From positions 75,471 to 139,470 of the forward strand of contig JAQTMH010000002.1 in assembly GCA_028714495.1 (NCBI GenBank): a DNA stretch of 64,000 nucleotides, written 5' to 3'. The stretch comes from Patescibacteria group bacterium. Its GTDB lineage: Bacteria > Patescibacteriota > Patescibacteriia > JAHIZJ01. Positions within the stretch are counted from its first letter, which is position 1. Each line of letters begins with the position of its first letter. This document shows positions 11,024 through 22,605 of the stretch, one piece after another. Both the position numbers and the translations under genes were made by a program. Under the pieces are notes generated by a model that worked only from the letters and a program-made list of their open reading frames with translations, made no database searches and had not been told where the DNA came from.

Positions 11024-12307
11024 TCAATTATTTTGCCACTCTGGTCCTTGTCTAACTAAAAGCTCTGAAGCCCGCATGGGTTCAGCCATCAGCTCTTTGA
11101 CGACCTTCTCGAGTCTGGCCACTTGGGAACCTTTAACTAGGATCAGGTCGCCTGGTTTAATTCGGTCTTCAAGGAACTTACCGGCTGGCTCAGCGTAATC
11201 AAATGAATATATTTCTTCTTTTGGAAAACCCTGGGCTTGGGCAGCCTCGGCGATTATTTTCGCCTTTTCGCCGACTGTCACCAGATAATTCACACACGAT
11301 ACCGCCATCTCCCCTACTTCACGATGGCCCTGTTCAGTATAGGAACCGAGTTCAGCCATATCACCAAGTACCGCGTATTTCGCGCCTCTAGCCGGGAGTT
11401 CCTCAAGTGTTTTTAAGGCAGCCACGGCGGCGGTCGGCGAAGAATTATAAGAATCGTCTATGATAAGAGTTTTTTTAATTCCAGCGATCAGGTTCATTCG
11501 GCCGGCTGGTGGACGAAACCCTTTTATCCTCTCGCTCATTTCCACGGCGTTCAAATTAAAACCTGAACCCACGGCCAGGGCCGCGATCGCCGCGTAAATC
11601 TGATGTCGGCCGATGGCGTGCGGCAGAAAAACTGGGAAGGTGCTGCCGTGGAATTTAACCTTAAAACTCAAACCCGGTGTCGCCTCCTTGGTCTGATCTT
11701 CGCTTAGTCGAATATCAAAGGCTCGAATACCCGCTTCCTCGCTAAAACCATAGGTTACAACTTGAGCGCTGGTTTTTTCGCGCATGGGTATAACCAAATC
11801 ATCATCATTGTTTAAAACCGCCCAGCCGGCTGTGGGCAGGCTTTTTATCAGGTGGCTTTTTTCCTGGGCAATCCTTTCTATCTTCGAAAAGTACTCGAGA
11901 TGGACTGGCCCGACCGCCGTAACCACGCCCACAAATGGCCTAGTAAATTTAACTAGATATTGGATGTCTCCGGGATGGTCAGCGCCCATTTCTAAAATCA
12001 AGATCTGGGGATAATCAACCCTCGGGCCATAAATCAGGCGCCAGCCATACAGAAATACTCCCAGCCAAGCCAGGGGATTTTTTCTCCCAGATTCACGACC
12101 AATAATTGTCAGGGGTACGCCGATTTCATTATTGTAATTTTTCTGATTGCGACGGCATTTGTAATGGCTGCTCATAACCGTAAAGATCGCCTCTTTAGTC
12201 GAGGTTTTCCCAACGCTACCGGTAATGCCGATAACTTTTGGTTGATAGCGATGGAGGATTTTCCTGGCTAGGTAACGGAGGATCGATTGGAGAACTTTTT
12301 TAGACAT
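11024..12307 (-). CDS. murF: UDP-N-acetylmuramoyl-tripeptide--D-alanyl-D-alanine ligase (short form, no N-terminal domain)
   Basis: GITGSVGKTSTKE P-loop, NYNNEIGVPLT motif and Mur ligase C-terminal domain. 427 aa. Confidence 0.85.
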   Translation of the reverse strand: MSKKVLQSILRYLARKILHRYQPKVIGITGSVGKTSTKEAIFTVMSSHYKCRRNQKNYNNEIGVPLTIIGRESGRKNPLAWLGVFLYGWRLIYGPRVDYPQILILEMGADHPGDIQYLVKFTRPFVGVVTAVGPVHLEYFSKIERIAQEKSHLIKSLPTAGWAVLNNDDDLVIPMREKTSAQVVTYGFSEEAGIRAFDIRLSEDQTKEATPGLSFKVKFHGSTFPVFLPHAIGRHQIYAAIAALAVGSGFNLNAVEMSERIKGFRPPAGRMNLIAGIKKTLIIDDSYNSSPTAAVAALKTLEELPARGAKYAVLGDMAELGSYTEQGHREVGEMAVSCVNYLVTVGEKAKIIAEAAQAQGFPKEEIYSFDYAEPAGKFLEDRIKPGDLILVKGSQVARLEKVVKELMAEPMRASELLVRQGPEWQNN

Positions 12308-12352
12308 TTTAGGTGAAAATACAAATTTCTATAAACATTCGAATCTCGAATT

Positions 12353-14113
12353 TTACTCTTGATCTGTTCTCGTTGGCGGCACTTCATAGTAGTTTAGCAA
12401 AAATTCGGCAATATCGCCAAAAAGCGGGGCCGCTGAACTTTCCGCCCAAATCACATCTTTGGGTACGTCCAACTTCACCACCATCACGAATGAAGGATTA
12501 TCAACCGGGCCGTATCCGGCAAAAGTACCGATGGTTCGATTTGGATCGTAGCCAGCTCGATCAGTATTGGGTATCTGAGCCGTGCCCGTCTTACCGGCTA
12601 TGTAATACCCTTTAACGCCAGCTTGCTTGCCGTGACCGTTCTCTACCACCCGCACCAACATGGCGCCTAAGGTAGCTGCTGTTTTTGAAGAAATTACCTG
12701 TCTTATTTCCTTGGGTTGAGTTTTTACCTTGACGCCGTTGTCGCTTATTATTTCGTCAACAATATACGGCTGTAAAAGTTTTCCCCCATTGGCGATTGCC
12801 AAAAATGCTTTAGCTATCTGCAAGGGCGTCACCGTAATGCCCTGCCCGAATGAAGCTGTCGAGCGATATATATCCCTCATCTTGGAGAGTGAACTGATAT
12901 CACCGGTAGATTCTGAATCGAGCGTAATATCGGTCGCTTCACCAAAGCCGAAAGATTTCACATACTCATAAAATTTTTCGTTGCCAATTTGCTCTGAGGC
13001 ATAGATCGCGCCGGTGTTTATCGAATTTTCCAAAACTTCGGTCATGGTCTGCTCCCCGTAAACCTTGTTGTCAGCATTGCGAATAGTATATTTGCCGATC
13101 TGGACGCTTCCTTCATCGACATATTTACTGTTGGGTCCAACCGCGCCCTCATTAATCGCCGAGGCCATGGTGAAGGGTTTAAAAACTGAACCGGGCTCGT
13201 ATTGATTATAAATTGCTCGGTTGATAAAAATATTTTGATCTTCAACTTCATTATACTTGTTCGGGTCAAAATCCGGGACATTGCACATAGCGATAATCGC
13301 TCCAGTTTTTGGATCGAGAATAATCAGGCTGCCGGAGTCAGCGCCGTGCTTTTCAACCGCTTTGGCCAATTTATCGCAAGCGGTAAATTGAATAGTCCGG
13401 TCAAGTGTCAAGACAACGTCTGTCCCGTCGACCGCTTCCTGTAATTTCGTATCACCCATCGTAATCCAGCGGCCCCCCGCGTCAAGTTGCGCCTGAAAAA
13501 ATCCTGCCTGTCCAGCCAGCTCTTTATCAAAATAGCCCTCGATGCCATACTGGCCTTTGCGCTCATCACCCTGATAGCCGACAAAACCCGTTACGTGACT
13601 GAAATATTCGCCTTCGGGATAATAACGGTAGCTTTCATCAGAGAATTCAATGCCGTCCAACTTTAATTCTTTTATTTTTGTCACGGTTTCTTCAGGAACT
13701 TGATGTTTCAACGGTTCATAAAGATCGTCGGCCTTTTGTAAACGAGGCAATATTTCTTCGGCTTCTAATTCAAGAATCGGGGCCAGTTTATCGGCCGTCT
13801 CTTCAGCCTTGGTTATCTTTTTTGGAACCGCGTAAACCAGCTGGTATGTCTTATTTGTGGCTATAGAATAGAGGTCGTTTCCCGAATAACGATCATGGAC
13901 ATAAATTTCGCCGCGCTGAGGCACCAGCTTTTCATAAATATCGTGCTGGTCCGAGGCCAGGGCGGCGTAAAAGCCGTGTTGAAAAACTTGTAGCACAAAC
14001 AAGCGATAAGTAATCGCGGCCACAAAAACAAAAATGACCACGCTGAGAAAAGTCAATCGGTCAAAACGCCTTTCCGAACGACGTTTTGTCTCAAATCTTT
14101 TCCGCCAGACCAT
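12353..14113 (-). CDS. ftsI: peptidoglycan D,D-transpeptidase (penicillin-binding protein 2 / FtsI-like)
   Basis: N-terminal TM anchor and dimerisation domain. Transpeptidase motifs S-V-F-K, SxN and KTGT (AGKTGTAQ). Confidence 0.88.
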   Translation of the reverse strand: MVWRKRFETKRRSERRFDRLTFLSVVIFVFVAAITYRLFVLQVFQHGFYAALASDQHDIYEKLVPQRGEIYVHDRYSGNDLYSIATNKTYQLVYAVPKKITKAEETADKLAPILELEAEEILPRLQKADDLYEPLKHQVPEETVTKIKELKLDGIEFSDESYRYYPEGEYFSHVTGFVGYQGDERKGQYGIEGYFDKELAGQAGFFQAQLDAGGRWITMGDTKLQEAVDGTDVVLTLDRTIQFTACDKLAKAVEKHGADSGSLIILDPKTGAIIAMCNVPDFDPNKYNEVEDQNIFINRAIYNQYEPGSVFKPFTMASAINEGAVGPNSKYVDEGSVQIGKYTIRNADNKVYGEQTMTEVLENSINTGAIYASEQIGNEKFYEYVKSFGFGEATDITLDSESTGDISSLSKMRDIYRSTASFGQGITVTPLQIAKAFLAIANGGKLLQPYIVDEIISDNGVKVKTQPKEIRQVISSKTAATLGAMLVRVVENGHGKQAGVKGYYIAGKTGTAQIPNTDRAGYDPNRTIGTFAGYGPVDNPSFVMVVKLDVPKDVIWAESSAAPLFGDIAEFLLNYYEVPPTRTDQE

Positions 14114-14148
14114 GGCCTAAATAATCAATTCAAAGATTTTTCTATAAA

Positions 14149-14517
14149 CTAGCGCTCTAAAGCGACGGCGCCTTGAGTCGGTTCAAGATATTCAAGCTTC
14201 GTCCTAGCAACTAGCTGGAGGCGCTCAGTCGCTGCCTGAATTTTCTGCAGGGATTGGAGATCGGCCACCTGTAGCTCCATCTTTTGGCTGGATTCCTGGA
14301 GATTTTTAATATCTTTATTCAAACTATCGATCGCAAAACCACTGGTCGCGGTCCGATTCACCTGAACCAGATAAGCCAAACCAAGAACAACAATTAGAAC
14401 GAGTAAAGCGATATTTAAAGTCTTCGGCTTTTGACTCAGACGCTGAAACAAACTCGGCCGCTTAGTCGCCGCATATTTCTGCTGATTAGTTTTGCACAAG
14501 AAGAAGTATTTAGACAT
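14149..14517 (-). CDS. ftsL: cell division protein FtsL-like (single TM plus coiled coil)
   Basis: 122 aa; sits between rsmH and ftsI. TM helix LNIALLVLIVVLGLAYLV followed by a heptad-like region. Confidence 0.65.
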   Translation of the reverse strand: MSKYFFLCKTNQQKYAATKRPSLFQRLSQKPKTLNIALLVLIVVLGLAYLVQVNRTATSGFAIDSLNKDIKNLQESSQKMELQVADLQSLQKIQAATERLQLVARTKLEYLEPTQGAVALER

Positions 14518-14523
14518 AAAAAA

Positions 14524-15486
14524 TCAAATTTTTTCTGCCACCCTCAAGTGGGCGCTCCGCGAACGGGGGTTTTCCCTCCGTTCGACTGCCCCAGCCGTGA
14601 CGCCCTTTTTGGTCAGACGCTTTAGGCTGGCCCGGTGATGGCACTGGCAAACGGGGATTTCCGGCGGGCAAATACATTTACGACTTTCTCGCTGAAAAAA
14701 ATCTTTGACGATTTTATCCTCCAGAGAATGGAAGCTGATTACCGCCAGCCGTCCGCCTGTTTTTAGAATGCTCAGCGCCCCTTCAAGACCCTTGGGCAAA
14801 TTAGACAGTTCGCGATTAACAGCCAGGCGCAGGGCTTGAAAAGTTTTCGTGGCTGGATGAGTGCCCCCCACCCAGGGCTTTGGTTTATGTGAATGAAGCT
14901 TATTGATATATACCCGGAGTATAGCCGCGGTCAAATCGCCGACTTTAGAAAATTTTTGTTTTTGACGGAAGAGGAGAATTTCTTTGGCGATTTGGCGAGT
15001 ATGGTTTTCTTGGCCATACTCCGATAGTATTTTTGTTAGTTCATTTTCAGGGTACGTGTTTAGGATGTCAGCGGCTGTCAGACCTTCTCCCGACATCCGC
15101 ATATCCAGGGGTGCCTCGGGCTTCAGGAAAGAAAATCCCCGAGTTTCGTCCCCGAGCTCAAATGATGATACGCCAAGATCGAGTAGAAAAGCACTAATTG
15201 GAAGATTTCGAAATTGTTCATGATGAATCCGAGGTAAATTTACAAAGTTTGTCTGAAAGAGATGAACGCGTCTACCGAATCTGGCCAATCTTTTTTTGGC
15301 GGCCGCGATAGCTTTCGGATCAAGGTCGCAGCCGATCAACTGACCCTGAGGCGCCGTTTTCTCTAAAATCGCTTCGGCATGCCCGCCTCCGCCGATAGTT
15401 CCGTCAATAACATTGAAGTTTGGTTTCAGGTCAAGCCAGGAAATCGTCTCCTTGAGAAGAACGGGCGTATGGAACTCTGTTGTCAT
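14524..15486 (-). CDS. rsmH: 16S rRNA (cytosine1402-N4)-methyltransferase
   Basis: DGTIGGGGHAEAIL SAM-binding motif; MraW family; placed after mraZ. Confidence 0.92.
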   Translation of the reverse strand: MTTEFHTPVLLKETISWLDLKPNFNVIDGTIGGGGHAEAILEKTAPQGQLIGCDLDPKAIAAAKKRLARFGRRVHLFQTNFVNLPRIHHEQFRNLPISAFLLDLGVSSFELGDETRGFSFLKPEAPLDMRMSGEGLTAADILNTYPENELTKILSEYGQENHTRQIAKEILLFRQKQKFSKVGDLTAAILRVYINKLHSHKPKPWVGGTHPATKTFQALRLAVNRELSNLPKGLEGALSILKTGGRLAVISFHSLEDKIVKDFFQRESRKCICPPEIPVCQCHHRASLKRLTKKGVTAGAVERRENPRSRSAHLRVAEKI

Positions 15487-15491
15487 GGTAC

Positions 15492-15923
15492 TTATACCCC
15501 CAATTCACCCAGGGCTTCAGCAATGTCACCGGAATTTTTTTCAGTACCCAGTTTGTACTTTTCCCAAACCAGAGCGTCCCAGATTTCCAACCGGTTGTAT
15601 AAACCCGCGATAACCACCTTTTTCTTGATCGAAGCGTATTTCCTTAAATAATCCGGCAAAATGACCCTCCCCTGCTTATCAACATCCGCATCCATGGCCC
15701 CAGCCAGCATTAAACGCGCGAAAGCCCTGGTATTCGCCTGGCTGATCGGGAGCTTGGCCAAACGGTCAGCCAGCTTAGTCCATTCCTCTTTGGTGTATAA
15801 AAACAAGCAATTATCAAGACCGCGAGTTACGACCGCGCCTTTTGACAAGTCTGTCCGGAATTTCACCGGTACAGCCACTCGGCCTTTTTCATCTAGATTA
15901 TGATGATACTCTCCGATAAACAT
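15492..15923 (-). CDS. mraZ: transcriptional regulator MraZ
   Basis: 143 aa. Duplicated DxxGR motifs (DEKGRVAVP and DKQGRVILP) are typical of MraZ. Confidence 0.92.
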   Translation of the reverse strand: MFIGEYHHNLDEKGRVAVPVKFRTDLSKGAVVTRGLDNCLFLYTKEEWTKLADRLAKLPISQANTRAFARLMLAGAMDADVDKQGRVILPDYLRKYASIKKKVVIAGLYNRLEIWDALVWEKYKLGTEKNSGDIAEALGELGV

Positions 15924-15953
15924 TTATGTGTGCTTTAGACTAAGGTGTGTTAT

Positions 15954-16037
15954 CCACCATTGTTATGGGTTATCCCCACTTTTATCCACTTTCAACCACT
16001 CTATTACCATTTTACACCACAACAACACACGCGTCAA
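15954..16037 (-). promoter_or_regulatory. Pmra promoter (TTGACG-N17-TAAAAT) followed by an MraZ operator: GTGG repeats phased at 10 bp
   Basis: Minus-strand -35 at 16032-16037, -10 at 16009-16014. Downstream of it: GTGGttgaaaGTGGataaaaGTGGggataa. On the plus strand CCAC occurs at 15976, 15986, 15996 and again at 15954. This matches the known AAAGTG[GT] / GTGGG MraZ boxes with 10-bp periodicity. Confidence 0.6.
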
Positions 16038-16154
16038 CACTATGTTACAACAGTTTTTATACCTAAAGGTCAAGTTTTTTGGATAAAAAACAGTCCCCTT
16101 TCAATATCTTGTGTGGGGTTGAGAAAAATGACACTAAATAACCGGCATGTGCCC

Positions 16155-16183
16155 TTGACAGAATATTTTTTATTTGCTAATAT
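16155..16183 (+). promoter_or_regulatory. consensus sigma-70 promoter TTGACA-N17-TAATAT, divergent from Pmra
   Basis: -35 at 16155-16160, -10 at 16178-16183. Drives the small basic ORF/transcript below. Confidence 0.55.
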
Positions 16184-16253
16184 TATCTGTTTTGCTGTTC
16201 CTTCGCATCTATGCGCTGCATTAATTCCTAGGTCTTCGAATGAAGGAGGGGTT

Positions 16254-16433
16254 ATGTGCCGCCGAAGGTCAAGAGGCAGCATTCCTGATCGAATCCGAGC
16301 TGCTGAGAATCGGGTGAGCCGACGTTTGCCCAGGGACAAGGCCGACCACATCCAGGCGCTCAACCGAATCATTCAGGGACGGCCACCCAGACCCGTGCCC
16401 TTCTCCGATCTCCGCCAACCCATCACCACCTAG
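16254..16433 (+). CDS. small basic Arg-rich protein (59 aa); alternatively the coding part of an sRNA
   Basis: GAAGGAGGGG Shine-Dalgarno 4-6 nt before the ATG. Translation: MCRRRSRGSIPDRIRAAENRVSRRLPRDKADHIQALNRIIQGRPPRPVPFSDLRQPITT. The 162-aa track ORF 15945..16433 shares this frame but its N-terminus covers the MraZ boxes and promoters, so only the last 59 codons are plausible. Confidence 0.45.
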   Translation: MCRRRSRGSIPDRIRAAENRVSRRLPRDKADHIQALNRIIQGRPPRPVPFSDLRQPITT

Positions 16434-16458
16434 CCCACCAGCGAGCGCAGCACAAAAA

Positions 16459-16500
16459 GCCATCCAAGCTTTCTAGCAAGGGTGGCTTCTTTTTTTATTA
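16459..16500 (+). terminator. intrinsic terminator (AGCCATCC-N14-GGGTGGCT then TCTTTTTTTATT)
   Basis: 8-bp stem with one G-U pair, followed by a T7 run, 25 nt after the small-ORF stop. Confidence 0.6.
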
Positions 16501-16536
16501 ATTATTACAAAAAACCATGACCAGCCGCTGGGGGGT

Positions 16537-16652
16537 CTGGGGGAAATCCTGAGCGTCAAGGTAGGCTATACAAAGTGGCTATGCTAATGAGAGCGAATAT
16601 TTCCCCCAGCAGTTCTTTTCTGTCACTTTTCTTGCTGTCAAGAAAAGTGACA
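16537..16652. repeat. two inverted-repeat structures downstream of murB: an 11-bp long-range pair and a perfect 14-4-14 palindrome
   Basis: CTGGGGGAAAT (16537-16547) pairs with ATTTCCCCCAG (16599-16609), enclosing 51 nt. The palindrome TGTCACTTTTCTTG-ctgt-CAAGAAAAGTGACA lies at 16621-16652. Confidence 0.6.
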
Positions 16653-16712
16653 AAATATTAACGCAAGTAAAAATGATAATCCTTGCCTATGTATATGTGA
16701 TATCAATATGTA

Positions 16713-17597
16713 TCAAAACCCAACCAGGTGTATTTCTTCGTGCAGTTCAATACCGTATTTTTCTTTGACCTTCTCTTTGATTAAGGCAATCAATTTAATC
16801 ACCTCGCTCGCTTTAGCTTGGCCGGCGTTAATAATAAAATTTGCGTGGGTTGATGATATTTGAGCATCCCCAATCCGTGTGCCTTTCAAACCCAGCTCAT
16901 CAATCAGCTTGGCCGCCGGATTGCCCGATGGATTTACGAAAACGCAGCCGGCCGAGGGTATCGAATAGTCTTGTTTGGCTGTGCGTTGTTTCGTATATTT
17001 ATCAACCAACGCCAGGCTCTCCACTTTATTTCCTGGTCGCAATTTAAAAGTTGCCGTCAAGATAATGTCATCAGAATGCTTAAATACGCTTTCACGATAA
17101 CCGAAAGCGCATTCTGACTTCGATAATATTGTCCGTCGATTACCAGCTGTTAATACTTCAACCGACTCCACGAATTCTTTCATTTCCGATCCAAAAGCTC
17201 CGGCATTGCCTCGAATCGCGCCGCCGATTGTTCCAGGAATGCCCGAAGCAAATTCAAGGCCGGCCAAACCCTGATTGATAGTCCAAATCACAAACTCTCC
17301 CAAACCCGCTCCGGCAGCAACCGTAACCAGGTTATTATTTTTTGTCCTCTCAGTTGTTTCGACAGAAATTACTAGGCCTTTTATCCCCTTATCCGCTACC
17401 AGAATATTGCTCCCCCTCCCCAGGATAAAGAGAGGCAGTTGAAGCTGACGCGCGGCAATAATCGCTTTTACTAAATCATCTGTTGTCTTGGTCCGATAAA
17501 AAAATTCGGCCGGGCCGCCTATCCGGTAAGTGGTGTGCCGGGACATCGGCTCGTTCTCGATAACGCCAGTTAATTTTTGGGTGATATCAATCGGCAT
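16713..17597 (-). CDS. murB: UDP-N-acetylenolpyruvoylglucosamine reductase
   Basis: FAD-binding domain (YRIGGPAEFF...LGRGSNILV) and MurB C-terminal domain. Confidence 0.9.
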   Translation of the reverse strand: MPIDITQKLTGVIENEPMSRHTTYRIGGPAEFFYRTKTTDDLVKAIIAARQLQLPLFILGRGSNILVADKGIKGLVISVETTERTKNNNLVTVAAGAGLGEFVIWTINQGLAGLEFASGIPGTIGGAIRGNAGAFGSEMKEFVESVEVLTAGNRRTILSKSECAFGYRESVFKHSDDIILTATFKLRPGNKVESLALVDKYTKQRTAKQDYSIPSAGCVFVNPSGNPAAKLIDELGLKGTRIGDAQISSTHANFIINAGQAKASEVIKLIALIKEKVKEKYGIELHEEIHLVGF

Positions 17598-17601
17598 TAA
17601 A

Positions 17602-18963
17602 TTATTTTTTTATAACCAGTTCGCGCGCCAGATTGTCAATTGTGCCAGCGCCCATCACTAAAATTAAATCGCGCGGAGATACTATCTTCTTTATTAGGTG
17701 CTTGGCCGCATGGAAGTCCTTGGCGAATTGTGCGTCCCGGCCCGATTTCTTAATCGCCTCGGCTAATTGAAACGAGCTTATGCGCGTGCTTCCGGTTTCT
17801 CGTCCGGCTACGTCATAGATTTCAGTCAAAATAACCTTATCGGCCGAAGCGAAGGCGTGGGCGAATTCATGAAAAAGCTTTTTTGTGCGACTGCGCTGGT
17901 GGGGCTGGAATACCGCAATAATTCTACGGCCGGGATGGGCTTCTCGAGCTGATTCCAGCGTCGCCTTGAGCTCAGTTGGGTGGTGGGCATAATCAGAAAT
18001 AACCAAAGCCCCCTGGAATTTTCCCACCAGCTCAAACCTTCGCCAGACGCCGGTGAAATGAGTCAGACTTTTTTTGATTATCTCCGGCGGAATTCCCAAT
18101 TTATGGGCGCAGGCAATGACCGCCAAGGCGTTTAGGACATTGTGGCGTCCGGCCAAACCCAGCTCGACCTGACCCAGGTGTTTTTCGATAAACACCGCCC
18201 GGCGTCCATAGCGTATTTTCTCGGCTCGGTATTCGCCCTGATTTATACCGTAGGTCACAACCGGAACTTTTATTGTTTTAAGGGCTGATTGAACAATCTG
18301 GTCATCAGCGTTGGCCACAATAAAGCCCTTTCGATCAACATTTTTTAAAAATTGCGTAAAGGTCTCCTGGATATCCCTCAAATCCCGATAGACATCTAAA
18401 TGATCAGGTTCAATGTTGGTTACAATCGCCACCCGAGGCCGGTAATTCAAAAAGGCTCGGCCGTACTCGTCAGCTTCCAGCACGTACGTATCGCTTTTGC
18501 CCAATCTGGCGTTTCCGTCAAATTTAGGTACTAAGCTGCCGACAATGATTGTCGGATCCCAATCAGCCTTGACCAATACCTGGCCCAAAAGCGCCGTCGT
18601 GGTGGTTTTGCCGTGAGTGCCTGAAACTGTAATTAGCTTTTTCCTTCTGGTTAATTCGCCCAGCGCCGCCGGGTAGGACAATAAAGTCAGTTTCCTTTTT
18701 TTCGCTTCCAGCAGTTCGGGATGATCGTTCGGAATAGCCAAGCTGTGGATCACCACTTCAGTCTCTCGGGATATATGCGTCGGTTTGGGCTGGCCGATGT
18801 GAATTTGGATGCCGAGCTGTTTCAAACTTTCGGTCACGGCGCCGCGAACTAGATCTGAGCCGATAACCTTTTTTCCCCGCCAGTGAAGCAGCCGTGCTAA
18901 AGCCGAAAGTCCGATGCCGCCAATGCCGATGCAAAAAATATTTTTTGCCGAATTAAGATTCAT
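17602..18963 (-). CDS. murC: UDP-N-acetylmuramate--L-alanine ligase
   Basis: FCIGIGGIGLSALARLL Rossmann N-terminus, GTHGKTTTT P-loop and Mur ligase domains. Confidence 0.9.
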   Translation of the reverse strand: MNLNSAKNIFCIGIGGIGLSALARLLHWRGKKVIGSDLVRGAVTESLKQLGIQIHIGQPKPTHISRETEVVIHSLAIPNDHPELLEAKKRKLTLLSYPAALGELTRRKKLITVSGTHGKTTTTALLGQVLVKADWDPTIIVGSLVPKFDGNARLGKSDTYVLEADEYGRAFLNYRPRVAIVTNIEPDHLDVYRDLRDIQETFTQFLKNVDRKGFIVANADDQIVQSALKTIKVPVVTYGINQGEYRAEKIRYGRRAVFIEKHLGQVELGLAGRHNVLNALAVIACAHKLGIPPEIIKKSLTHFTGVWRRFELVGKFQGALVISDYAHHPTELKATLESAREAHPGRRIIAVFQPHQRSRTKKLFHEFAHAFASADKVILTEIYDVAGRETGSTRISSFQLAEAIKKSGRDAQFAKDFHAAKHLIKKIVSPRDLILVMGAGTIDNLARELVIKK

Positions 18964-20030
18964 TTTGGTTTCTTGATTAACGACAGAAGCTTGTCGGCCA
19001 GTATTTCTCTGGCTTCAGGTTTGACCAGCTGACGGATGTTCTTGCTCAAAACTCGCCGCCATTCCATGTTTGAAAGAAGACCGTGGATAACATTGACCAA
19101 AAAATCCGGATCAACGGTCGACTGGTCCAACACCACCGCGGCATTGGCTCGCTTAAAAACCGCCGCGTTGGCTTCCTGGTGGGTATCCGGCATCGGTATG
19201 ATTATTGCCGGTAAACCGACGGCCGCAACCTCGGTTAAGCTGCCCAAGCCGGCCCGGCAAAGTACGATATCAGCAACGGCGAAGGCCTCCTTCATCTCGC
19301 CAACTAGAAATTCATAACCGTGATAGCGTTCTTCTTTGATTTTGTACATCATTTTTTCCTTACCAAATAGATGGACGACTTGGCAGAACTTTGTCAGTTT
19401 AAAAATCATTTCCATCATCATTTCATTTATTTTCTGGGCACCGGTTCCGCCGCCAAACACCAGCACTGTGGGTAAACTCGGATCTAGGCCAAAATCTTTT
19501 TGCCCGGCGTCACGACTCCCGGTCAGGAGTTCCTCTCTGATTGGATTCCCCACCCAGATTGTCTTCTCTTTAGGGAAATTCTTCAGGGAAGATTCAAAAG
19601 TTACGGTAATGAGAGTCGCGATTCGCTGGAGCATTTTATTGGCCAAACTCGGAATTACATCCTGCTGGTGGATAAGCGCGGGTATATGCAGAAACCAGGC
19701 CGCCCAGACTACCGGTACGCTGACAAAACTGCCAGCCGCCAAAATCACCTCGGGTCGGTACTCTTTAAGTATTTTCAACGACTGAAAAAAACCGGCCAAA
19801 ACCCGAAATGGATCTATAAAGTTTCTCCAGGAAAAATAGCGCCTCAGCTTCCCCGCTGAAATTGCCTGAAAACCTATCCCTTTCTCCCTGACTAAATTAC
19901 CCTCTGGACCATACTGCGTTCCAATAAACAAAAAATCCGCTTCTGGATATTTCTCACTAATTTCATCGGCGACGGCCAGGAGTGGCGTGGCTGAGCCACC
20001 GGTTCCGCCGCCGGCAAAAATGATTTTCAT
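18960..20030 (-). CDS. murG: undecaprenyldiphospho-muramoylpentapeptide beta-N-acetylglucosaminyltransferase
   Basis: MKIIFAGGGTGGSATP (GT28 N-terminal glycine-rich motif); C-terminal GT28 domain with GLPAIIIP...HQEANA. Confidence 0.9.
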   Translation of the reverse strand: MKIIFAGGGTGGSATPLLAVADEISEKYPEADFLFIGTQYGPEGNLVREKGIGFQAISAGKLRRYFSWRNFIDPFRVLAGFFQSLKILKEYRPEVILAAGSFVSVPVVWAAWFLHIPALIHQQDVIPSLANKMLQRIATLITVTFESSLKNFPKEKTIWVGNPIREELLTGSRDAGQKDFGLDPSLPTVLVFGGGTGAQKINEMMMEMIFKLTKFCQVVHLFGKEKMMYKIKEERYHGYEFLVGEMKEAFAVADIVLCRAGLGSLTEVAAVGLPAIIIPMPDTHQEANAAVFKRANAAVVLDQSTVDPDFLVNVIHGLLSNMEWRRVLSKNIRQLVKPEAREILADKLLSLIKKPK

Positions 20031-20069
20031 AATTCAAATATACTAAAAAGGTGGATTTTTTAAAGTTAT

Positions 20070-21218
20070 TTATCGTTTTCGAGAGGTAGAAACGACCGCC
20101 TGGCCTTGTCTTGAGATATTAACCAAAACTCCCATCGCCGTCAATGAAGTCACTATCGCCGTGCTGCCGTGGCTAATGAACGGCAAGGGAATGCCGGAGA
20201 TAGGCACAATTCCAACCATGGCGGCGATATTAAAGAATGCTTGGAAAGAAATCCAGGTAACTATGCCAATCGCCACGTATTTACCAAAGGCATCCGGCGC
20301 CTGCCGGGCAATTTTAAATCCGCGAATCATCAGTACCACAAACAACACAATTAAGAAAAGGCAAAAGATGAATCCAAGTTCCTCGGCAATCACCGCGAAA
20401 ATCGAATCCCCCGCGGCCTCCGGCAAATAATTATACTTCTGGCGCGAATGCCCCAAGCCTAAGCCAAAGAGCCCGCCCGACCCAATAGCCAAAAGCGCCT
20501 GATTGATATGATAGCCGATGCCCTGGGGATCCACTTCGGGATGGAGAAAAACCGTAAAACGGGCGGCGCGATAGGGCGCGATTTTTATCAGCAACAGAAA
20601 CAATCCGACGCTGGCACCGCCAAGCCAGGTTACATGAACCAAATTGGCTCCGGCGATAAAAAAAACCGTTACCGCCATAAAGCATAAAACAAGCATCGTA
20701 CTGAAATCTGGCTCAAGGATGATCAGACCGGCCACCAATCCCAACAAAACCAAAAACGGCAAAAAGCCATATGAGAAACTCTTCAAGCCCTCTCCTCTTT
20801 TTTGCAGCCAAGTGGCTAAATAGAAAAGAAAAGTCAATTTTGCCAGCTCAGCCGGCTGTAAAGTAAAGCCTCCCAGATTTATCCAGCGATTGGCGCCCTT
20901 CAAGCCCAGTCCAAGGCCGGGAATGAAAACAACAATCAGCAACCCGATCGTAATAATGAGCAAAGGAAAGGCCAGTTTTTCCCAGAGATGATAATCCAGC
21001 CTTGCCGCCAGCCAAAAACCAAAGGCGCCGATCAATACGCCGTAAACCAACTGATGCTTGAGGTAGTAATTGCTGTCGCCAAACCGTTCATATCCGATAA
21101 CGGTGCTAGCCGAAGAAAGTAAAATAATCCCCAAAAAAACAATCAACGCCAAAACAGCTATGAGAATATAGTCTGGAGCGTGATAGCGACTATTAGTCCT
21201 GTTTTGGGTGGGACGCAT
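20070..21218 (-). CDS. ftsW: SEDS-family peptidoglycan glycosyltransferase FtsW/RodA
   Basis: 10-TM protein with the GxxGxxLG...LPEAxxDxIF SEDS signature; located within the dcw fragment. Confidence 0.88.
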   Translation of the reverse strand: MRPTQNRTNSRYHAPDYILIAVLALIVFLGIILLSSASTVIGYERFGDSNYYLKHQLVYGVLIGAFGFWLAARLDYHLWEKLAFPLLIITIGLLIVVFIPGLGLGLKGANRWINLGGFTLQPAELAKLTFLFYLATWLQKRGEGLKSFSYGFLPFLVLLGLVAGLIILEPDFSTMLVLCFMAVTVFFIAGANLVHVTWLGGASVGLFLLLIKIAPYRAARFTVFLHPEVDPQGIGYHINQALLAIGSGGLFGLGLGHSRQKYNYLPEAAGDSIFAVIAEELGFIFCLFLIVLFVVLMIRGFKIARQAPDAFGKYVAIGIVTWISFQAFFNIAAMVGIVPISGIPLPFISHGSTAIVTSLTAMGVLVNISRQGQAVVSTSRKR

Positions 21219-21219
21219 T

Positions 21220-22605
21220 CTACGTTAAGTCTTTTACCGCTTGAAGATATTTTTCTCCGCGGTCAAATTCATTGTTAAATAAATTGAAACTGGCCGCGGC
21301 CGGCGAAAGCAACACCGTATCGCCGGGTTCAGCCAATTGGAAGGCCTTTCGCACGGCCAGGTTCATGTTTTTGGCTAGATGGACAGGCGTTTTTTTAACG
21401 GCTTGGCGGATTTTTTTAGAGGCTGTGCCAGGTAAAAGCACCAGTGACTTGGCCAGGCGATCAATCAAACGCCCTAGCTCGCGATAATCCAACCCCTTGT
21501 CCTGCCCGCCGGCGATTAATATTATCTGTCGGCCGGGGCTAAGAGCTTTCAAAGCGGCCAGCGTGGCAATCGGCGCCGTGGCGGTTGTGTCATTTACAAA
21601 AGTCACGCCTTTAAATCTTCGCGCTGTCTCAAGCCTGCTGCCCACGCTTTTGAATCGCCGAATGCTCGCGCTGATGATCTGATCCGGAACCTTGAGCGAC
21701 CGGGTTAAAGCCACGGCCGCCAAAACATTTTCCAGATTATGCTCGCCCAGCAAATGAACTCCTGAAACTGGCAATATCGGCTGAAACTTCTTGGTTGTAC
21801 CAAAAACAATATTACCCTCATTAACAAACGCCCCTCGCGCGGCCGGACTGGTAAACGGCCTTTTGGAAAACCAAATAACCTGGCTCCTGGCTTGGTTGCT
21901 CAGCTTGCGCGTTATCCGATTGTCATAGTTTAAAACAATCAGATCTCCGGGTTTCTGAAAGCGAAAGATAATTCCCTTAGCCTGGGCATAAGCATTGAAC
22001 GAAGAATACCGATTGAGGTGGTCAGGCAATACGTTGGTAATTAAAGCGTATCTGGGGCTTACCTTGCGCCTAACCAATCCCTCAAGCTGCCAGGAAGAAA
22101 GTTCTAATACGACTTTTGTATTCTTGTCGATCTTGGGCAGAATATCGAGCATGGCCGCGGTCCGGATATTGCCGGCCACAATCGTTCTGGGAAAAAACTT
22201 TTTTAATATTTCACCGACTAAAGTGGTAACTGTACTTTTGCCCTTGGTTCCGGTAATGCCGATCACCGGCACTTTCACCAGCTCAAAAAATATTCCGGCC
22301 TCGTTTTCAATCGGTACTCCGGCCTTCCTGGCTAACTTTAAATAAGGCGAATCATTCGGCACGCCCGGGTTTTGGACGACTAAATCAGTCTCTCGAAAAT
22401 CCTCTACCCGGTGCCGGCCCAGGACGTATTTAATCGGCCACCCCTTAAGCTTTTCCAGAGACGGCATTAAAACAACTTCCGATCGCAAATCAGTAGCCGT
22501 AACCTTAGCTCCAGCCCTGGCAAAAAACCTGGTTACCGCCACTCCCCCGCCGTGCAAGCCCAGGCCCATGACTGTTACCTTTTTATCTTTCCAATTGAGT
22601 TTCAT
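21220..22605 (-). CDS. murD: UDP-N-acetylmuramoylalanine--D-glutamate ligase
   Basis: KVTVMGLGLHGGGVAVTRFF N-terminus and GITGTKGKSTVTT P-loop. Confidence 0.9.
   Translation of the reverse strand: MKLNWKDKKVTVMGLGLHGGGVAVTRFFARAGAKVTATDLRSEVVLMPSLEKLKGWPIKYVLGRHRVEDFRETDLVVQNPGVPNDSPYLKLARKAGVPIENEAGIFFELVKVPVIGITGTKGKSTVTTLVGEILKKFFPRTIVAGNIRTAAMLDILPKIDKNTKVVLELSSWQLEGLVRRKVSPRYALITNVLPDHLNRYSSFNAYAQAKGIIFRFQKPGDLIVLNYDNRITRKLSNQARSQVIWFSKRPFTSPAARGAFVNEGNIVFGTTKKFQPILPVSGVHLLGEHNLENVLAAVALTRSLKVPDQIISASIRRFKSVGSRLETARRFKGVTFVNDTTATAPIATLAALKALSPGRQIILIAGGQDKGLDYRELGRLIDRLAKSLVLLPGTASKKIRQAVKKTPVHLAKNMNLAVRKAFQLAEPGDTVLLSPAAASFNLFNNEFDRGEKYLQAVKDLT

Follow-up and report, generated by a model that had tools for sequence, protein, structure and literature searches.

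The DNA analysed here, called the window throughout, is a 64,000-nucleotide (nt) stretch of a Patescibacteria group bacterium (assembly GCA_028714495.1, contig JAQTMH010000002.1, positions 75,471 to 139,470), and the subject of this report is a short plus-strand transcription unit lying between mraZ (15492-15923) and murB (16713-17597). Both of these genes are on the minus strand and the gap between them measured 789 bp. An initial annotation made from the sequence had put the gap at 790 bp and had described the unit inside it as an orphan. The unit is independent as described, but it belongs to a tiny, fast-evolving family, and we conclude that it is very probably a protein-coding gene. Transcription is predicted to start from a sigma-70-type promoter at 16155-16183 on the plus strand, with TTGACA at 16155-16160, a 17-nt spacer ending in TGC (extended -10) and TAATAT at 16178-16183; the promoter scan scored this as a 10/12 match with a TG extension, in agreement with the promoter first annotated. 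The same scan found 10 promoter-like matches in this AT-rich stretch where 3.6 were expected, so the promoter by itself is weak evidence. It stands above chance because nine other loci repeat the arrangement of promoter, Shine-Dalgarno sequence, open reading frame (ORF) and terminator, in order and in position. The 5' leader of about 64 nt (16190-16253, plus strand) runs from a predicted start site at about 16190 and holds the motif GCGCTGCA at 16213-16220. Reading the sequence gave no in-frame start codon between about 16190 and the ATG at 16254. The Shine-Dalgarno sequence GAAGGAGGGG at 16242-16251 (plus strand, read from the sequence) is as strong as had been claimed, and a hairpin in the leader of the window is predicted to sequester it. 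The ORF begins at the ATG at 16254 and occupies 16254-16433 on the plus strand, with 59 codons and a TAG stop at 16431-16433 (MCRRRSRGSIPDRIRAAENRVSRRLPRDKADHIQALNRIIQGRPPRPVPFSDLRQPITT; NCBI hypothetical protein PHI73_02095). The ORF region (16250-16474) has a GC content of 0.61 compared to 0.449 for the window.

The unit closes with a predicted intrinsic terminator at 16457-16497 that would work on both strands. It consists of a two-tier hairpin (16457-16488) between an upstream A-run and a downstream T-run, folding at -17.8 kcal/mol on the plus strand and -18.1 kcal/mol on the minus strand, with CTTTTTTTATT as the plus-strand T-tract. The pattern scan missed this hairpin because of its internal loop. 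As the reverse strand folds equally well and is also followed by a T-run, we read the hairpin as a bidirectional terminator, and on this sequence reading it is also the terminator of the convergent murD-ftsW-murG-murC-murB operon. The terminator and the convergence with murB were already in the initial annotation, and the closing of the murB operon by the same hairpin is an addition to it.

To follow the unit outside the window, relatives of its MraZ (71-87% identity) were collected from species-representative genomes, metagenomes and public assemblies, giving 172 loci in all, numbered here with the prefix L. The MraZ of the window is encoded identically on one contig of a metagenome-assembled genome (MAG), L001 (GCA_028717285.1). 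A unit divergent from mraZ was found in nine further loci, L001, L003 (the same as L167), L004, L005, L006, L007 (the same as L083), L085, L163 and L169. All 10 loci carried TTGACA, 17 nt and a TGCTAATAT-like -10 ahead of a small ORF. In the nine further loci the leader measured 61-107 nt and led to GGGGGTT or GGAGGGGG and an ATG; the ORF was GC-rich, with 54-73 codons, and a hairpin terminator closed the unit. The exact promoter 35-mer had no match in the species-representative genomes. The leader motif GCGCTG(CA) was found in the window, L001, L004, L006, L007 and L163, with the variants GTGCTGCA in L005 and GCACTGCA in L169, and was not seen in L003 or L085. Sequestration of the Shine-Dalgarno sequence was rejected as a trait of the family, as it was strong only in the window and L001 (probability of being unpaired 0.04 in both, 0.26-0.57 in the other loci). 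In L001, L004, L006 and L169 the terminator hairpin kept its shape and its inner GCU/AGC stem, and the outer stem carried compensatory changes. In L003 two tandem family ORFs (2699-2484 and 2475-2284, minus strand) follow one promoter. The initial annotation had proposed looking for the ORF in orthologous regions; the outcome mostly favours the annotation, the ORF being present and in frame in the nine loci, and the whole unit is missing from L168, L170, L084 and L087, so that it appears dispensable.

The constant neighbour of the unit across loci was mraZ. On the far side lies murB in the window, L001, L004 and L169, and a membrane-anchored protein of 626-789 amino acids (aa) in L005, L007, L163 and L085. 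This larger protein has an N-terminal membrane segment, no Pfam domain and no homologue in the window. It is encoded at 537-2906 in L163, 1-2290 in L005 and L007, 223-1440 in L085 and 444-2324 in L168, and in L168 a protein of this type occupies the place of the small gene. Many of the related MAG records (L004, L005, L008, L019 and others) are titled 'uncultured Gammaproteobacteria bacterium'; these titles look like a labelling artefact, and the MraZ and gene order match Patescibacteria MAGs.

The elements, as predicted, follow the order of a bacterial protein-coding transcription unit, that is promoter, ribosome-binding site, start codon, open frame and terminator. Coding was assessed in six pairs of loci from the rates of nonsynonymous and synonymous difference (pN and pS). 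In all six pairs the sense frame alone was free of stops in both members with pN below pS. Sense-frame pN/pS was 0.49 for L005-L007 (Fisher p 0.007), 0.55 for L007-L163 (p 0.0003), 0.60 for L005-L163 (p 0.0015), 0.56 for window-L001 (p 0.0008), 0.55 for L004-L006 (p 4e-5) and 0.68 for L085-L169 (p 0.017). Among the alternative frames pN/pS was about 1 in four of five, and the antisense '-1' frame gave 0.62-0.82 (p 0.005-0.36), a lowering to be expected in a frame that shares third codon positions with the sense frame. The antisense frames gave no sign of coding constraint, with two having pN/pS near or above 1 and each having a stop in at least one pair. Two antisense ORFs of the window, of 64 aa (16269-16463) and 100 aa (16070-16372), had no Pfam or NCBIfam family match. 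The gene caller used on the Logan contigs had annotated the antisense 64-aa ORF (at 143-337 in L002 and L166) and not the sense 59-aa ORF.

The initial annotation had suggested that the GC-rich transcript could instead be a structured or dual-function small RNA. We considered it as an RNA acting mainly by base-pairing, with the GC-rich body forming the structure. The predicted short monocistronic transcript with its strong promoter and terminator, a GC content and a third-position GC content (GC3) above those of the host genes, and the conservation of GCGCTGCA in most loci are compatible with this suggestion. It was not borne out by the RNA searches. Rfam gave no match at gathering level in the 64-kb window, and at a permissive threshold over 15900-16750 the best match was terminator-like only, with 23 bits compared to a cut-off of 114. 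No tRNA or tmRNA genes were found alongside this search of the window. The minimum free energy of the transcript was no better than that of shuffled sequences (z = -0.16 on the plus strand and -0.37 on the minus strand), and RNAalifold of the L005, L007 and L163 transcripts returned a positive covariation term of +5.9 with many broken pairs, preserving the terminator alone. The transcript body is also the least conserved part at the nucleotide level. We therefore consider a base-pairing RNA very unlikely as the main function of this unit.

Conservation at the nucleotide level was concentrated in the expression signals. Across species the identity of the ORF to the window equalled the shuffled baseline, as in L004, L006 and L169, while the promoter reached 0.68-0.75 against a baseline of 0.57-0.60 and the terminator region 0.71-0.76 against 0.53. 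This pattern would suit an explanation in which the transcription unit matters and the protein does not, with a young, barely constrained ORF inside a strongly transcribed, convergent unit that mainly insulates the MraZ-regulated promoter from read-through out of murD-ftsW-murG-murC-murB. A terminator predicted to function on both strands, the weak constraint on the protein and the absence of the unit from some relatives fit this explanation as well. Against it, the open frame, the ATG and the strong Shine-Dalgarno sequence are retained in 10/10 loci, and we calculated the chance of a 60-codon frame staying open at 60% GC at about 14%. Sense-frame pN is significantly below pS and the products are basic in 11/11 cases. 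In addition, the units of L005, L007, L163 and L085 do not face murB convergently and thus have no read-through from a murB operon to block. An insulator with an incidental ORF is thus an unlikely account, although we rate it above a base-pairing RNA.

The 59-aa product is very basic as had been claimed, with a net charge of +10 and an isoelectric point (pI) of 12.0; it contains 14 Arg and not the 13 counted before. All 11 family products have a net charge between +3 and +13 and a pI between 9.4 and 12.0. They are hydrophilic (grand average of hydropathy -0.25 to -1.2), with no hydrophobic segment in any of them and no signal peptide. For the window protein AlphaFold2 predicted helices over residues 10-24 and 27-41, with the Pro-rich tail disordered (predicted local distance difference test, pLDDT, 66), and for the L007-type protein helices at 3-13, 25-37 and 42-61 (pLDDT 62). 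In these models the last two helices of the L007-type protein match the helix pair of the window protein. As stated initially, there is no recognisable domain. Searches of Pfam, NCBIfam, PHROGs, PADLOC and the PDB sequences with single proteins and with family alignments returned only scattered sub-threshold matches, and Foldseek of the window model against the PDB found nothing (best E = 9.4). The sole Pfam match of the window protein was DUF7430 (residues 16-56; 13.7 bits compared to a cut-off of 27, E = 0.066), which was obtained for one of 10 members and was treated as chance. Ribbon-helix-helix repressors, in which a strand of alternating hydrophobic residues precedes two helices, were also considered; two helices are predicted, the N-terminal stretch RRRSRGS of the window protein holds polar residues only, and no ribbon-helix-helix family appeared in the Pfam or NCBIfam scans of the family proteins.

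A further possibility was that the product is a stand-alone helix-loop-helix DNA-binding domain like that of Lsr2 or H-NS, acting as a minimal nucleoid-associated protein. The second L003 copy (L003b) matched PHROG 21142 'Lsr2-like' in its C-terminal region (E = 0.0079) and the DNA-binding domain of M. tuberculosis Lsr2 by pairwise BLASTP (E = 0.002), and the predicted two-helix core and basic charge are compatible with such a domain. The family profile, however, gave an hhalign probability of 0.08, no member had a Pfam Lsr2 match, and there was no PDB match. The AT-hook-like RGR minor-groove motif is not conserved; between the two helices the window protein has PRDKAD, the L007 and L163 proteins have SRCY, and L003b has ERSR. 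One paralogue is weakly similar and the family profile is not, and membership of the Lsr2 family was rejected for the family as a whole, and we regard this explanation as highly improbable.

Searches of large protein catalogues placed few proteins beside the one in the window. Word-indexed searching of 5.8 billion proteins brought up none besides the proteins of the window and of L007. One further member, P0005, which is the L163 protein, came from an exhaustive HMMER search with a profile against 1.84 billion representatives; two repeat proteins from the same search were judged spurious. Within the family the products formed five subgroups. Similarity was z = 12.9 for window-L001, 15.3 for L004-L006, 14-36 within L005/L007/L163 and 7.7 for L085-L169, and the fifth subgroup consists of the two L003 copies, whose mutual similarity was not significant (z = 0.6). 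Between subgroups, window and L007 were linked at z = 4.8, and profile-profile comparisons gave P values of 0.0012 (A-C), 0.021 (A-B) and 0.0061 (C-E), the three alignments being collinear. Common ancestry of all five subgroups is likely mainly because they share promoter, leader motif, Shine-Dalgarno sequence, length, charge, terminator and position. Alternatively, the coding part may have been replaced within a conserved expression slot. By these comparisons the loci hold what appears to be a small, fast-evolving, narrowly distributed and previously undescribed protein family of Patescibacteria.

The comparison of the window with the conspecific strain L001 showed where this variation sits. 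Flank identity was 96.7% across 3.7 kb toward mraZ and 95.0% across 2.4 kb toward murB, and it rose to 100% in the promoter and roughly the first 29 nt of leader. The segment 16219-16691, comprising the distal leader, Shine-Dalgarno sequence, ORF, terminator and murB-proximal spacer, had nothing alignable to L001 and measured 473 bp in the window versus 313 bp in L001. The breakpoint is sharp, at 16218/16219, inside the leader motif, and the two ORF products share 41% protein identity. Between L005 and L007 the ORF was 75% identical, with a synonymous divergence (dS) of 0.63, inside flanks of 89-99% identity. Logan contigs from two runs (L002, L164, L165 and L166; SRR22315508 and SRR22315509) all end in the variable segment, at 16576-16605, with an overlap of about 30 nt, which suggests a branch of the assembly graph with co-existing variants at this position. 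The replacement of alleles within a species is the most unusual feature of the unit. Together the replacement, the low ORF identity, the GC3 (0.67 in the window ORF and 0.55-0.76 in relatives, compared to 0.34-0.61 for host genes in the window) and the patchy presence indicate that alleles turn over by recombination through the conserved flanks, with a weakly constrained sequence and a dispensable gene.

Such turnover could be that of a strain-specific conflict gene (immunity, anti-phage or addiction-type) whose alleles are shuffled by recombination and held under frequency-dependent selection. The replacement of the whole allele between nearly identical flanks, the high ORF dS between L005 and L007, the host-atypical GC3, the patchy presence, the tandem duplication in L003 and the break of the Logan unitigs within the variable segment all fit this explanation. 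The features of known conflict systems were not found. In the test for toxin-antitoxin or defence function there was no partner gene, the unit being monocistronic between two terminators and promoters, and there was no PADLOC match. PHROGs, tblastn against phage genomes and a scan of viral contigs gave no match that would point to phage origin. The protein lacks a signal peptide or hydrophobic segment, and the locus is fixed beside mraZ and not in a mobile or defence island. We consider a conflict gene improbable. Equally improbable in our judgement is an 'expression slot' at the mraZ promoter, in which promoter, leader and bidirectional terminator are fixed and a small basic cassette is repeatedly swapped, or has diverged past recognition, to serve as a strain-specific modulator of the division and cell-wall genes under MraZ control or as a conflict or immunity factor. 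If it were true, this would make the locus a polymorphic regulatory one, of a type not known from the dcw (division and cell wall) region, in ultra-small episymbionts.

The product of mraZ regulates the division and cell-wall cluster and is itself poorly understood. In the window this cluster is permuted and lies on the minus strand at 11024-22605, with murD-ftsW-murG-murC-murB upstream of mraZ-rsmH-ftsL-PBP (penicillin-binding protein)-mur ligase on the same strand and the small gene on the opposite strand parting the two halves. The promoter scan placed the predicted mraZ promoter, Pmra, on the minus strand within 15950-16037, with TTGACG at 16037-16032 and TAAAAT at 16014-16009. Its -35 lies 117 bp from that of the small gene on the opposite strand, which agrees with the divergence at about 120 bp in the initial annotation. 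Just 3' of the Pmra -10 are three GTGG repeats in 10-bp phase (15970-15999) and a further one at 15950-15957; on the minus strand the repeats read AGTGGTTGAA, AGTGGATAAA and AGTGGGGATAA. MraZ binds phased GTGG/TGGG repeats, and by analogy these are presumably MraZ operators. The phased repeats were kept in every relative read, with or without the small gene. About 73 nt separate the Pmra -35 from a distal GTGGGG box (16113-16118) on its upstream side, and the same spacing was counted in L004; the window and L004 are the two loci in which it was measured. Most relatives have an extra GTGG box upstream of Pmra, which was not evident in L003. The distal box holds its distance to Pmra and not to the promoter of the small gene, and co-regulation with mraZ is for this reason not demonstrated.

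On the other side of the unit, between the murB stop and the bidirectional terminator, the window contains a structured element at 16524-16612 and a hairpin at 16627-16665. The element has a counterpart in L004 (2294-2379), and its long stem (GGGGGAAAU / AUUUCCCCC) shows three compensatory changes relative to L004, with two to three in the second hairpin. It had no Rfam match and is absent from the conspecific strain L001, and a covariance model of it matched only the window and L004. If located on the minus strand this element would be the 3' untranslated region of murB.

Across the loci the family keeps its expression apparatus, size, positive charge and back-to-back position with mraZ, and does not keep its amino-acid sequence. 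We favour, with moderate confidence, the reading of the unit as an independently transcribed, lineage-restricted small-protein gene whose product binds nucleic acid and is linked to mraZ. The near-consensus extended -10 promoter would drive a monocistronic mRNA of about 305 nt, and the strong Shine-Dalgarno sequence would direct translation of an abundant 59-residue basic protein (pI 12). This protein would begin with a short stretch rich in Arg, its core is predicted to be a hairpin of two helices, and its Pro-rich tail would be disordered. Transcription would stop at the bidirectional terminator, which would also serve the convergent murB operon. The product could then bind nucleic acid by charge, whether DNA in or close to the control region of mraZ or RNA or the ribosome, and would be coupled functionally to the MraZ-controlled division and cell-wall genes. 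Charge-driven binding is proposed because charge and size are conserved and sequence is not. Action at the MraZ-controlled genes is proposed because the divergent pairing with a transcription-factor gene is conserved, such conserved pairing being a classical sign of functional or regulatory coupling. Our confidence in the reading as a whole is a compromise between the high confidence that the unit encodes a protein and a much lower one in this mechanism. Nucleic-acid binding linked to mraZ is a tentative proposal drawn from sequence features, and it may well be wrong.

Several results weigh against this reading. The protein is under weak constraint (pN/pS 0.5-0.7), and the distant pairs were aligned under protein guidance, which biases them toward the sense frame; the alignment of the L005 and L007 ORFs is unambiguous, at 75% nucleotide identity with one 3-nt indel. 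The ancestry of the five groups rests on marginal similarity together with locus architecture, and hidden Markov models built leaving out one group at a time recovered none of the omitted groups. The four loci without the unit have a MraZ identity similar to that of the loci that carry it. The confidence of the AlphaFold models is low (pLDDT 62-66). Finally, the GC3 of the ORF is above that of every host gene in the window, and amino-acid composition alone is insufficient to explain it.

Small proteins are systematically missed in the genomes of uncultured bacteria, and this family is a case in point, having been called as a gene only twice among 5.8 billion catalogued proteins; one gene caller took the antisense frame instead. 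The bacteria in question are ultra-small Patescibacteria with very few regulators. If expression and binding prove true, the locus would offer a handle on the tuning of cell-division control in Patescibacteria, and a clean example of expression signals outlasting the coding sequence. If the ORF is instead young and weakly constrained, this would be an ordinary orphan gene.

The unit behaves as an ordinary monocistronic small-protein gene would, and four kinds of known system resemble it in part, the nearest being small division regulators divergent from a repressor gene and polymorphic small-peptide loci. SgrS/SgrT, RNAIII/hld and SR1/SR1P are dual-function small RNAs with a small ORF. The unit is like these in its predicted monocistronic transcript of about 300 nt with promoter, small ORF and intrinsic terminator. 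It differs in that we found no conserved structure or seed beyond the terminator and that the selection signal lies in the ORF. The C-terminal domain of Lsr2 and H-NS is likewise small and basic with a two-helix core of the kind predicted here, and one paralogue is weakly similar to it, but the family proteins have no oligomerisation domain and no family-level similarity, and RGR is not conserved. The comC and agrD genes are polymorphic small-peptide loci that determine competence or quorum pherotype between conserved flanks. Like them, the unit shows a sharply bounded within-species allele replacement between neighbours that are 95-97% identical; unlike them, it has no export signal, processing gene or receptor gene, and its product is a basic protein of cytoplasmic type. 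The last comparison is with B. subtilis yneA beside lexA and mycobacterial chiZ beside lexA, which are small lineage-specific division regulators divergent from a repressor gene. These have a membrane segment, often a LysM domain, and LexA boxes, whereas the window protein is fully hydrophilic and its gene stands beside mraZ, with no operator shown to be common to the two. What the unit has in common with yneA and chiZ is that it is short, fast-evolving and taxonomically restricted, with its own predicted promoter, and stands back-to-back with a transcription-factor gene for division and the envelope.

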